From: an uncultured Gemmatimonadaceae bacterium
Lineage (GTDB): Bacteria; Gemmatimonadota; Gemmatimonadetes; Gemmatimonadales; Gemmatimonadaceae
Reading direction: 5' to 3'
Assembly (NCBI GenBank): GCA_963740355.1
Contig: CAVUDW010000003.1
Span: forward strand, 1,504,001 to 1,568,000
Length of the DNA stretch: 64,000 nt
A program made the position numbers and the translations under genes. The notes under the pieces are model-generated. The model had not been told where the DNA came from, ran no database searches, and worked only from the letters and a program-made list of their open reading frames with translations. Shown here in pieces: positions 10,399 to 11,767 of the stretch; positions within the stretch are counted from its first letter, which is position 1, and each line of letters starts with the position of its first letter.

Positions 10399-10583
10399 AC
10401 CGCTGACATTACCCTCGTTTCAGTAACCGGCTAGCCGCGTCGAATCGCGCCCTCTCGGTCCTACACTACCGATCTGTCGTTAACGGCCTTGACGCAAAAC
10501 AGCCTGGGGGTACTGCGACAGCCGCAAAACTGCCACAGCTGCAAAACTGCAACTGCGTTAACGCAGAGTAGCTGTGTTGAAAG

Positions 10584-11519
10584 TCAAGCCGTGGCGGGCG
10601 TGGGGGTCCGCCACGGTGTTTGCGTTTTGACCATCGCGTTGAGGATGGTGAGGAGGCGGCGGAGGCACGCGATCTTGGCGACTTTGGTGGGCTTCCCGGC
10701 GGCGCGCAGCGCCGCGTAGACGGGCTTGAGGACCGGATTCCATTGTGTGGCCACATGGGTGGCCATGTAGAGGATCGAGCGAATCGTTGCCCGCCCGCCC
10801 CAGCACACGCGGGCACCGCGGAATTGCCCGGATTCCTGCGCGAGCGGCGCGACGCCCACGAGCGCGGCAATGGCGCGCCGATTCAGCGTCCCCAATTCGG
10901 GCAACAGGGCGACCAAGTACCGTGCGCTCTGCTGGCCGATGCCCGGCACGCTCGTCAGGAGCGTCACCTGCGCTTGCCAGGCCGCATTCCGTTCGATCAG
11001 TTCGCCGATCTCATTGTCGATGTCACGCAGCGCCTCGGCGAGCGCCTCCAACGTCCCGCGCACATTCGTCGCCACGCGCGCGGTCGCGACGTGCAGGCGA
11101 TTCTTCTCCATCGTCTGCATCGTGACCAACTGCCGGCGCCGTTCCACCAAGGCCGCCAGCGCCTGCTGCTCCGCGTCGGCGAGCGGCCGGACGGGTGGGG
11201 CGAGCACGGCGCCAAACCGCGCCAGGATGCGCGCATCCACGCGATCCGTCTTCGCCAACTGGCCGGTGCTGCGCGCGAACTCGCGCACCTGCCGCGGATT
11301 GACGACCGCGACGGGGATCCCGGCGCCGGTGAGCGCGCCGGCGACGGCGCGATGATACGTGCCCGTCGCTTCCAGCACGACCAAGGTCGGCGGCTGCGCG
11401 GTGAGCGCGGTGACGAAGGCGTCGATGTCCGCCGCCGTATTGCGGAGCTGCGTCACCGCACCGTCGTGGACCGCCACATCCAAGTGGGCCTTGCTGACAT
11501 CAATGCCGAGATACGTCAT
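10584..11519 (-). CDS. IS110 family transposase (DEDD recombinase)
   Basis: [32 protein letters not shown] at 11519 with GGAGG RBS. Confidence 0.95.
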
Positions 11520-11524
11520 ACTGC

Positions 11525-11705
11525 CTCCAGGTGACGACCGCGCGCGCCCTGCCTTGCGAGATGCGGGATCGCGTCGGCGTCCCTGGTAGCTGTCCGGGCT
11601 TGTAGCGATCGGGACGACGGCGCTCTGACTCTGCGACGGGCTCACGGCGCCCGGGGCGCTCCGAACGAGCTGCCGCCGTCCCGGAGATTTAGCTTCTGTG
11701 CGAGG
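11525..11705 (-). ncRNA. Putative IS110 bridge RNA
   Basis: Two predicted internal-loop hairpins carrying segments that match the element's donor ends (ACAGCTAC, GCAAG) and target (GGAGCGCC, CGCAGAG); boundaries approximate. Confidence 0.75.
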
Positions 11706-11767
11706 AGACATACAAGGCGCGGTGTCTAGTCCTAAATAATGTCTACACAGGGTGCAGGCGGTCTGGG

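Follow-up and report, generated by a model that had tools for sequence, protein, structure and literature searches.

The mechanism of bridge-RNA-guided insertion sequences of the IS110 group has been known since 2024, and one of these elements, ISCro4 / IS622, serves as an engineering workhorse. In IS621 of E. coli (PMC11208160, PMC11208158), the gene for a DEDD/Ser recombinase lies between a long RNA-bearing left end and a short right end, with a CT core at both ends of the element; the target loop of the RNA precedes the donor loop, the left guides have the same sense as the top strand, and the right guides are complementary to it. The left donor guide (LDG) has 8 nt and ends with the first core base, the right donor guide (RDG) is discontiguous and finishes in CAAG, and two-base handshake guides are present. 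The right end holds a -35 box, the left end a -10, and insertion takes place in repeated extragenic sequence. Elements of the IS1111 group carry their RNA in a long right end and have subterminal inverted repeats of 7-17 bp (PMC11208160). ISPpu10 of P. putida is an IS110 element that inserts in a conserved intergenic repeat and for which a preprint abstract (10.64898/2026.03.19.712850) describes a stem-loop beside the guide-matched sequence, a GC-rich 5' extension that was tested experimentally.

As a case study, we consider positions 10567-11716 on the minus strand of the window, that is, the whole 64-kb stretch of DNA that was analysed; all features given below lie on this strand. We hold with high confidence that this segment is an intact insertion sequence of the IS110 group, of the IS621 type and guided by a bridge RNA. 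It shares with IS621 the features listed above, with -35-like and weak -10-like boxes as putative promoter elements, and is a new example of the known mechanism, not a new kind of system.

The recombinase gene (10584-11519) encodes 311 amino acids followed by a stop codon and is preceded by a ribosome binding site, GGAGG, at 11528-11524. Its product matches PF01548 (E 1.3e-26) and PF02371 (E 2.1e-15), both above the curated cut-offs, and therefore combines an N-terminal DEDD RuvC-like domain with a C-terminal Tnp domain containing the catalytic serine. The nearest PDB chain is the ISCro4 transposase 9t56 (E 1.2e-35, residues 3-303), the bridge recombinase of an element from another host, followed by the IS621 transposase 8wt6 (E 5.8e-33, residues 2-303), and the phmmer match to the IS621 protein reaches 118 bits over about 300 residues. 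Residues D7/E50/D92/D95/S230 align with D13/E62/D104/D107/S243 of the IS621 structure chain; if the chain numbering is offset by 2 residues, these would correspond to D11/E60/D102/D105/S241, the catalytic residues of IS621 (PMC11208158). These domains and nearest structures bear out the identification as IS110 made in the initial annotation of this DNA.

The gene is flanked by a non-coding left end of 197 nt (11716-11520) and by a right end that, after the stop codon, extends over only 17 nt (10583-10567). Read by hand on the minus strand, the left junction is CCGCGC-CT/TGTATG, with the CT core at 11716-11715, and the right junction is ACAGCTA-CT/CTGCG, with the left donor ACAGCTA at 10575-10569 and the core at 10568-10567. 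A long non-coding left end, a short right end and a CT core at both junctions, without long terminal inverted repeats, place the element in the IS110 group, and the 17-nt right end together with the position of the RNA in the left end led us to reject the IS1111 group. The element measures 1148 bp when one CT core is counted. It had been placed initially at 10560-11722; the location holds, and the true ends are at 10567 and 11716, the earlier limits reaching 6-7 bases into the conserved target flank at either end.

Seven copies are present in the genome. All have the same ends, CT/TGTATGTC...ACAGCTA/CT, so with the CT core at both extremities, and all keep the recombinase ORF open; five are identical over 1150 bp and the remaining two carry 21 and 44 base differences. 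Targets matching the right guide in full and the left guide in its proximal part are likewise found at every copy. The start of the left end is also conserved outside this genome: it begins CTTGTAT in 83/94 upstream regions of relatives (a count that includes L036, from the unpublished genome G026), and this motif is invariant in alignment A1. The donor junction and the empty target reconstructed in the initial annotation are thus upheld, since ends and target flanks recur in 7/7 copies, and all the motifs it named were found, on reading by hand, at the minus-strand coordinates it gave for them.

The presence of several copies raises the question of whether they moved by transposition. That they are inactive relics, multiplied when larger segments were duplicated, is extremely unlikely: some do lie in similar repeat-rich intergenic contexts, but their flanks are wholly different past about 10-20 bp of repeat, five copies are identical and no ORF is interrupted. 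Moreover, in metagenome contigs from two public runs the element is bordered by different flanks, and the 30 letters of one of these, compared by eye, are those of a site left unoccupied in this genome (C2:5036). No circle junction or excision joint was seen among the assembled contigs of the public runs. The copy in the window is intact, and we consider the element as probably still mobile. The end of an IS3-like element (...CTAGACA) adjoins the left target flank of this copy; target duplications of this neighbour, sought for the order of insertion, were not consistent in its 5 copies.

The left end encodes a predicted RNA with two stem-loops, each with an inner hairpin beyond a large internal loop. 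The target-binding stem-loop (11611-11682) has an outer stem formed by GGGACGGCGGC (11682-11672) and GCCGTCGTCCC (11621-11611), extended by GCUC (11670-11667) and GAGC (11625-11622), and an inner hairpin at 11638-11652 (GGGC, loop GCCGUGA, GCCC); most of its 13 outer-stem pairs show compensatory changes. The donor-binding stem-loop (11546-11599) is closed by GCCC (11599-11596) and GGGC (11549-11546) around an inner hairpin at 11583-11565. Using RNAalifold on 43 sequences, we saw compensatory changes at 16 of the 23 pairs obtained, and a covariance model built from 41 relatives, without the window element and its nearest relative, matched the 64-kb window once, with 69 bits (E 7e-14) at 11542-11683. 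The layout of a target loop followed by a donor loop, as initially proposed, is therefore confirmed by the covariance model match as well as by covariation in relatives. A single-sequence fold of the left end recovered the outer stems, with a stability that is not unusual (z -1.65); as this fold pairs part of the right target guide (RTG), it was not used for the loop interiors. It has no clear 5' stem-loop ahead of the target loop, which is a difference from IS621. A search of positions 10300-12000 against Rfam 15, with E up to 1, returned no bridge-RNA family. The same search gave two matches at chance level (a miRNA and a CRISPR repeat), both within coding sequence.

The guides can be read directly in the loops. 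In the target loop, the 5' strand has the sequence of the top strand of the left target and core, and the 3' strand is complementary to the core and right target: the left target guide (LTG) is GGAGCGCCC (11654-11662), corresponding to the motif GGAGCGCC read by hand at 11662-11655, and the RTG is CGCAGAG (11629-11635), the reverse complement of CT-CTGCG at 7/7 positions, and this at all seven copies. The RTG of IS621 has 4 nt, whereas that of the present element naturally has 7, a length also known from some IS621 orthologues (PMC11208160/PMC11208158). In the donor loop, the LDG ACAGCUAC (11586-11593, read by hand as ACAGCTAC at 11593-11586) equals ACAGCTA of the right end plus the first core C, 8/8. 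The RDG (11553-11562) consists of AU (11562-11561), CUC and GCAAG (11557-11553), a discontiguous layout described for IS621, as is that of the handshake guides (PMC11208158); CAAG is the reverse complement of CTTG, the G before it faces a T, and the AU could pair with a TA deeper in the left end. Both left guides have C instead of U as their second core base, and at this position the LTG differs from that of IS621.

To follow these pairings we used relatives having at most 60% protein identity to the window element, which are not mutually independent; the alignment, guide, structure, promoter and handshake analyses exclude L036 and L048, which come from the unpublished genome G026. Guide positions covary with each relative's own flanks and ends, and the stems show compensatory changes. 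For the donor side, 65 of 95 loci could be parsed (17 were dropped for lack of the LDG motif and 13 for lack of CTTGTAT), and in 54 of the 65 the LDG 7-mer is identical to the right end of the element that carries it, with a single-base difference in 8 more, and 7 different left donor guides covary in this way; the count is partly circular because right ends were located by searching the guide sequence itself, an exact 9-mer being expected by chance about 0.002 times in some 430 nt. For the target side, 57 rows remained (8 of the 65 having been dropped for bad right ends or short flanks), and 47 of them have at the RTG position a 7-mer that is reverse-complementary to CT+RT5, with 18 different guide sequences. 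A rule-based search recovered the inner hairpin of the target loop in 52/57 rows, the other 5 having no callable hairpin. Misparsed rows were counted as misses: the window row for the LDG, L125 for the hairpin and L046, L088, L122 and L085 for the handshake. The 7-nt and 8-nt guides of the window element, which match exactly, thus stand at positions homologous to the guides of its relatives.

Next to the right guides are two further pairs of bases with the properties of handshake guides, since each pairs with position 7 of the non-cognate DNA and leaves the cognate DNA unpaired. The target loop has UC (11627-11628), whose U can pair with the A at donor position 7; the GC of the donor loop (11551-11552) pairs with target positions 7 and 6 (C and G). 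In the window copy U pairs with donor A7 and G with target C7, and the cognate position 7 is left unpaired by both. Among relatives, the first base of the donor-loop handshake guide pairs with target position 7 in 39/42 rows, including A:T twice and T:A once, and that of the target-loop handshake guide pairs with donor position 7 in 33/35 rows.

These data bear on the function of the left end. One could suppose that its structure is an mRNA leader that regulates the transposase and has no role as guide, the complementarities being due to terminal sequences and chance, and the leader does continue into the ribosome binding site with no terminator between them. This is very improbable: the 18 right target guides and 7 left donor guides covary with the targets and ends of the relatives that carry them, handshake positions covary too, and the protein is homologous to recombinases whose structures were solved in complex with bridge RNA (PMC11208158). 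We accordingly retain the reading as a bridge RNA.

All seven copies sit in ...GCGC-CT/CT-CTGCG, with GCGC on the left in 7/7 and CTGCG on the right in 7/7. The left target flank of the window copy is CCGCGC (11717-11722), and the six other copies have CTCTGCGC at this place. The right target flank (10549-10566) opens with CTGCG (10566-10562), the first arm of a palindrome CTGCG-TTAA-CGCAG and the start of a REP-like dispersed repeat, and its sequence matches about 18 other loci in the genome. The site of 6/7 copies, CTCTGCGC-CT-CTGCG, is part of this repeat; such a target in a high-GC host is a further difference from IS621. The LTG matches the targets at only 5/9 positions (GCGC-C), another difference from IS621, the match being confined to GCGC and the first core C, and its distal bases GGA mismatch at every site, six reading TCTGCGC-CT and the window copy ACCGCGC-CT. 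The element had been described as programmed for GGAGCGC-CT-CTGCG, which goes too far: GCGC-CT-CTGCG is indeed present at all seven sites, but GGA is at none of them. Distal mismatches are usual in the clade, where the LTG matches with frequencies of 0.42/0.33/0.60 at -7/-6/-5 and 0.72-0.95 at -4 to -1, and where a score of 5/8 is modal (16/41 pairs); the target used is thus NNN-GCGC-CT-CTGCG. For the same reason the window copy, initially described as lying at a site with distal left mismatches, is no unusual off-target insertion. The 5' loop strand holding the LTG is about 3 nt longer here than in most relatives of the clade. An interrupted, extended left guide (GUUC...GCGCC against GTTC...GCGCC) was considered and rejected, as the occupied sites lack GTTC at -11 to -8.

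Among the elements closest to it, L061-L063 from a Gemmatimonadaceae MAG also belong to the IS110 group and have 60% protein identity, donor ends ACAGCTA-CT-TGTATGTC, the RTG CGCAGAG, similar targets (CTCTGCGGC-CT-CTGCG and the like) and a -35 TTGACT at 17 nt. They differ by their LTG, UCGUGGC-C, which matches their three sites at 5-6/8 positions strictly and at 6-8/8 with wobble, and by an LTG register shifted one base with respect to the inner hairpin.

It may be asked whether the choice of target is only partly guided by the RNA, a short effective left guide (GCGC-C, 4-5 nt) being supplemented by recognition of the REP-like DNA; we consider this rather unlikely. The candidate DNA cues would be the palindrome CTGCG-N3-4-CGCAG starting from the right target, or tandem CTCTGCGC units, in which the core would have the RTG complement to its left as well as to its right. 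Such a reading would account for the three distal LTG bases that mismatch at 7/7 sites, although distal mismatches are also common in relatives with unrelated targets. It is likewise in line with the 6/7 insertions found in the repeat context CTCTGCGC-CT-CTGCG and with the only exact GGAGCGCCTCTGCG site of the genome, which lies in non-repeat sequence and is empty; however, most GCGC-CT-CTGCG sites lie in the repeat, so that abundance alone could explain the bias, and occupancy, at 6/20 CTGCGC-type sites versus 1/19 other GCGCCTCTGCG sites, rests on small numbers (3 of the 14 unoccupied CTGCGC-type rows being repeat units just left of occupied copies). Finally, a palindrome of 3-5 bp, read from the flanks, begins at the right target in 7/7 copies, and the target stem-loop of ISPpu10 acts, according to the preprint abstract, as a second specificity determinant; that stem-loop is, in the same source, a 5' extension, whereas the palindrome of the present element, a candidate determinant, lies on the right side. 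If target choice were partly guided, the element would represent a right-side variant of the structural gate of ISPpu10, with three guide bases spare in nature. Our preferred reading remains that of targets specified by the bridge RNA.

Two sequences at the ends could form a promoter across a circle junction: TTGACT (10582-10587), a -35-like box of the right end that shares bases with the stop codon, and TATGTC (11707-11712), a weak -10-like hexamer in the left end with 3/6 matches to the consensus, which would lie 17 nt apart once the ends are joined. The idea of TTGACT as a -35 had been put forward with the reserve of a weak -10; it is strengthened by the relatives, 31/48 distinct ones having TTGAC 17 nt (in one case 18) upstream of a left-end TATnnn across the junction. 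In the integrated left end, the minus strand showed no sigma-70-like site.

For transcription, the circle, RNA-protein binding and the chemistry, we infer the following course. By homology to IS621, excision would join the right end to the left one at the CT core, and the junction would set TTGACT 17 nt upstream of TATGTC, from which a leader RNA of about 170-190 nt could be transcribed. This RNA would fold into the two internal-loop stem-loops and be bound by the DEDD/Ser recombinase; its first loop would pair with the chromosomal target and its second with the circle junction, where ACAGCUAC would pair with ACAGCTA-C and AU...GCAAG with CT-TGTAT. Once the top strands have been exchanged, the handshake guides UC and GC, located after each right guide, are predicted to pair with position 7 of the other DNA, and recombination at CT would then insert the element into the REP-like repeat, with the consensus CTCTGCGC-CT-CTGCG.

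The knowledge of how IS110 elements work is left unchanged by this element. What it contributes is a natural bridge-RNA element with clean annotation, from a little-studied high-GC lineage, in which all four guides and both handshake guides are directly readable and the RTG naturally has 7 nt. With seven insertion sites in one genome and many empty ones for comparison, it provides a natural data point on specificity, which shows the proximal left guide and the full right guide matching and, judged from these sites, a distal left guide that appears dispensable. The element could be a candidate orthologue for engineering.

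The genome search recovered seven copies of the element in the window's own genome (5.45 Mb, 5 contigs), all with the same ends, CT-TGTATGTCTCC...CAACACAGCTA-CT, which lie 1150 bp apart counting both CT dinucleotides, so that the element measures 1148 bp with one CT (window 10567-11716, minus strand). Five copies are identical and the remaining two differ at 21 and 44 bases; the ORF is open in all seven, and their left-end RNAs show one difference only, in the loop of the inner donor hairpin. When the window sequence was checked by hand, every motif named in the initial annotation was found in its place. 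The recombinase ORF (11519-10584 including the stop, minus strand, 311 aa) is preceded by a non-coding stretch of 197 nt and followed by merely 17 nt, and its product carries DEDD_Tnp_IS110 (PF01548, E 1.3e-26) and Transposase_20 (PF02371, E 2.1e-15) domains. Among solved structures, its top two matches, aligned over residues 2-303, are the bridge recombinases of ISCro4 (9t56, E 1.2e-35) and IS621 (8wt6 and five further entries, E 5.8e-33). Residues D7, E50, D92, D95 and S230 align to D13, E62, D104, D107 and S243 of the structure chain; with a two-residue chain offset inferred from the N-terminus, these would be the catalytic residues of IS621, given as D11, E60, D102, D105 and S241 (PMC11208158).

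In the IS621 bridge RNA, as described in PMC11208160 and PMC11208158, the target loop precedes the donor loop. In either loop the 5' strand reads like the top strand over the left half-site and core; it is 9 nt long in the target loop, and in the donor loop its 8 nt end after the first core base. The 3' strand is complementary to the core and right half-site over 4 nt (7 nt in some orthologues), and the guide for the right donor is discontiguous. Each right guide is followed by a two-base handshake guide; once strands have been exchanged, it pairs with positions 7 and 6 of the opposite DNA, and pairing with its own DNA has to be avoided (PMC11208160, PMC11208158). Set against these rules, the target loop of our element has an outer stem whose 5' arm, GGGACGGCGGC-A-GCUC, pairs with the 3' arm A-GAGC-GCCGUCGUCCC; between the arms lie a GUUC linker, the left target guide GGAGCGC-CC (matching GCGC-C of the target only), a C linker, the inner hairpin GGGC/GCCGUGA/GCCC, a GU linker, the right target guide CGC-AGAG (reverse complement of CT-CTGCG, 7/7) and the handshake guide UC, the U of which pairs with donor position 7 (A). 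In the donor loop, enclosed by the outer stem GCCC...GGGC, the left donor guide ACAGCUA-C equals ACAGCTA-C of the right end (8/8), and the right donor guide is AU-CUC-G-CAAG, where CAAG is the reverse complement of CTTG, the G faces a T, and the AU could pair with TA of TGTAT. After the right donor guide comes GC, the handshake guide of this loop, which pairs with C and G at target positions 7 and 6; neither UC nor GC pairs with its cognate DNA at position 7.

Searching 60 related genomes, we obtained matches in 13 further genomes (best 53% identity), and a 185,579-species collection yielded 154 relatives, of which 80 were kept; the closest relative, at 60% identity, is present in three copies in a Gemmatimonadaceae MAG, and all others are at 52% or less. 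The left end begins CTTGTAT in 83 of 94 upstream regions, a tally that counts one locus (L036) left out everywhere else. For the left donor guide, 65 of 95 loci were parsed: the 7-mer equals the seven bases before the terminal CT of the same element's right end in 54/65 (seven different 7-mers), is one base off in eight, and the right end was not found in two, in a test that is partly circular because right ends were located by searching the guide itself (by chance, about 430 nt would hold an exact 9-mer only about 0.002 times). The window's own row was mis-parsed by the pattern; its guide matches 7/7 by eye. At the place of the right target guide, the 7-mer is identical to the reverse complement of CT together with the five flank bases to its right in 47 of the 57 rows with usable flanks, and these matches comprise 18 different sequences, all directly after ...CCG-U/C. 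Base 1 of the donor-loop handshake guide pairs with target position 7 in 39/42 rows, including two A:T and one T:A pairs where the target differs, the three misses being read as parsing errors. Its target-loop counterpart pairs with donor position 7 in 33/35 rows and is U solely in the window and the 60% relative, both of whose donors end in A. Across 43 left ends RNAalifold gave 23 pairs; compensatory changes occur in 16 of them, and two pairs, which join the donor guides to each other, are probably not real. A covariance model of 41 relatives, with the window and its nearest relative left out, found a single match in the 64-kb window (11542-11683, minus strand, full length, 69 bits, E 7e-14), which bears out the target-loop/donor-loop RNA proposed initially.

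Comparison of flanks across the genomic copies, as the initial annotation had advised, gave CTGCG on the right and GCGC on the left in 7/7; the longer left flank is CTCTGCGC at six, and at the window copy it is CCGCGC, immediately after the end of an IS3-like element. The target is therefore ...GCGC-CT-CTGCG, normally CTCTGCGC-CT-CTGCG. The initial annotation took GGAGCGC-CT-CTGCG as the programmed target, which would make the window copy's site an imperfect one, but the three distal mismatches are common to all seven copies, and the one genomic occurrence of the full left-guide match, GGAGCGCCTCTGCG, lies in non-repeat sequence and is empty. Distal mismatches are also usual in the clade. Over 41 distinct guide/site pairs, with 0-2 linker bases allowed, strict matches in 40 relatives occur at frequencies of 0.42, 0.33 and 0.60 at positions -7, -6 and -5, of 0.72, 0.88, 0.85 and 0.95 from -4 to -1, and of 0.95 and 0.78 at core positions 1 and 2. 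Modal scores are 5/8 and 6/8 (16 pairs each), the window scoring 5, and mismatched guide/site pairs average 3.9, a null inflated by the C-rich ends of many targets. Several relatives have no U at the second core position (CA or CG), as does the window (CC). A specificity for GCGC-CT-CTGCG is thus supported.

The sequence CTCTGCGC-CT-CTGCG covers one and a half CTCTGCGN units in tandem and lies at the border of a REP-like repeat that is dispersed over intergenic sites (around window 10470-10566 and at many other loci of the genome). The dispersed repeat combines units of the GCAGTT[CT]TGCGG type, CTCTGCGN units in tandem and a palindrome, CTGCG-N3-4-CGCAG; CAGTT[CT]TGCG occurs 130 times in the genome, and about 18 other loci match the window copy's right flank. 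This repeat is the element's preferred landing site. Unoccupied GCGCCTCTGCG occurs 32 times genome-wide, vs about 13.5 expected from base composition, with CTGCGC on the left in 14/32; three of these 14 are repeat units immediately adjoining an occupied copy on its left side. Beside three copies (L004, L005 and L006), a second intact GCGC-CT-CTGCG, one repeat unit (8 bp) left of the insert, is still empty (C3:1320690, C2:848770 and C3:1841089 in the genome-wide site list). The repeat-context bias (6/7) is explicable by where GCGC-CT-CTGCG sites lie. Less probably, the repeat's own palindrome, which is found at the right flank of all seven copies, shares in target choice, a role that would be reminiscent of the stem-loop at the target described in the ISPpu10 preprint (10.64898/2026.03.19.712850). 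Occupancy is 6/20 at repeat-type sites and 1/19 at others, numbers too small to decide between this and the distribution of sites.

The window copy lies in the intergenic repeat upstream of a delta-aminolevulinic acid dehydratase gene on the same strand (9316-10398, minus strand; PF00490, E 1.7e-150). The IS3-like element on its other side (11723-12990, minus strand, about 1265 bp, ends TGTCACG...CTAGACA), separated from it by CCGCGC alone, contains orfA (12481-12942, minus strand, no Pfam match) and orfB (11771-12481, minus strand, rve domains). It has five genomic copies, several likewise within REP-like repeats, and no consistent target duplication was found at the five.

The initial suggestion that TTGACT in the right end (10587-10582, minus strand, overlapping the stop codon) could serve as a -35 after circularisation, with a weak -10, gained support for the -35 box: TATGTC (11712-11707, minus strand), which would lie 17 nt downstream across the circle junction, is a poor -10, and 31 of 48 distinct relatives keep TTGAC at a spacing of 17 nt (18 in one case), a few more having TTGAT in the same place. 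In L006, a 98% copy (G000:C3:1839908-1841081), a T to C change at element position 1130 alters the first base of TTGACT, synonymously in the last Ala codon, and would weaken the junction promoter. No sigma-70-like site was found on the minus strand of the integrated left end, which would fit circle-borne expression of the kind demonstrated for IS621 (PMC11208160). A 12-bp hairpin, CCGTGGCGG...CCGCCACGG, lies in the last recombinase codons (10588-10617), just ahead of the -35 box, and was marked as a terminator-like feature of the plus strand; it might act as an insulator of the junction promoter or terminate antisense RNAs.

The public runs listed include no RNA run, and their assembled contigs showed no circle junction. 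Contigs from two runs stop exactly at the conserved target flanks and then run into other sequence; in one of the runs, the 30 letters that are visible read, by eye, the same as the left flank of C2:5036, a site empty in this genome, and since this run may be the genome's own source sample, the match is not independent evidence. Together with the five identical copies, the other-flank contigs suggest insertion polymorphism.

Elements of this kind are already known: bridge RNAs were predicted by Durrant et al. for 85.7% of the IS110 elements in ISfinder, and for thousands of orthologues besides (PMC11208160). The element and its clade are without a close characterised relative, the protein being at most 60% identical to all those fetched and the Rfam search of the element region giving no match to a bridge-RNA family. 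Overall, this is an ordinary, well-preserved and probably active IS110-group element with a predicted bridge RNA of the IS621 type.
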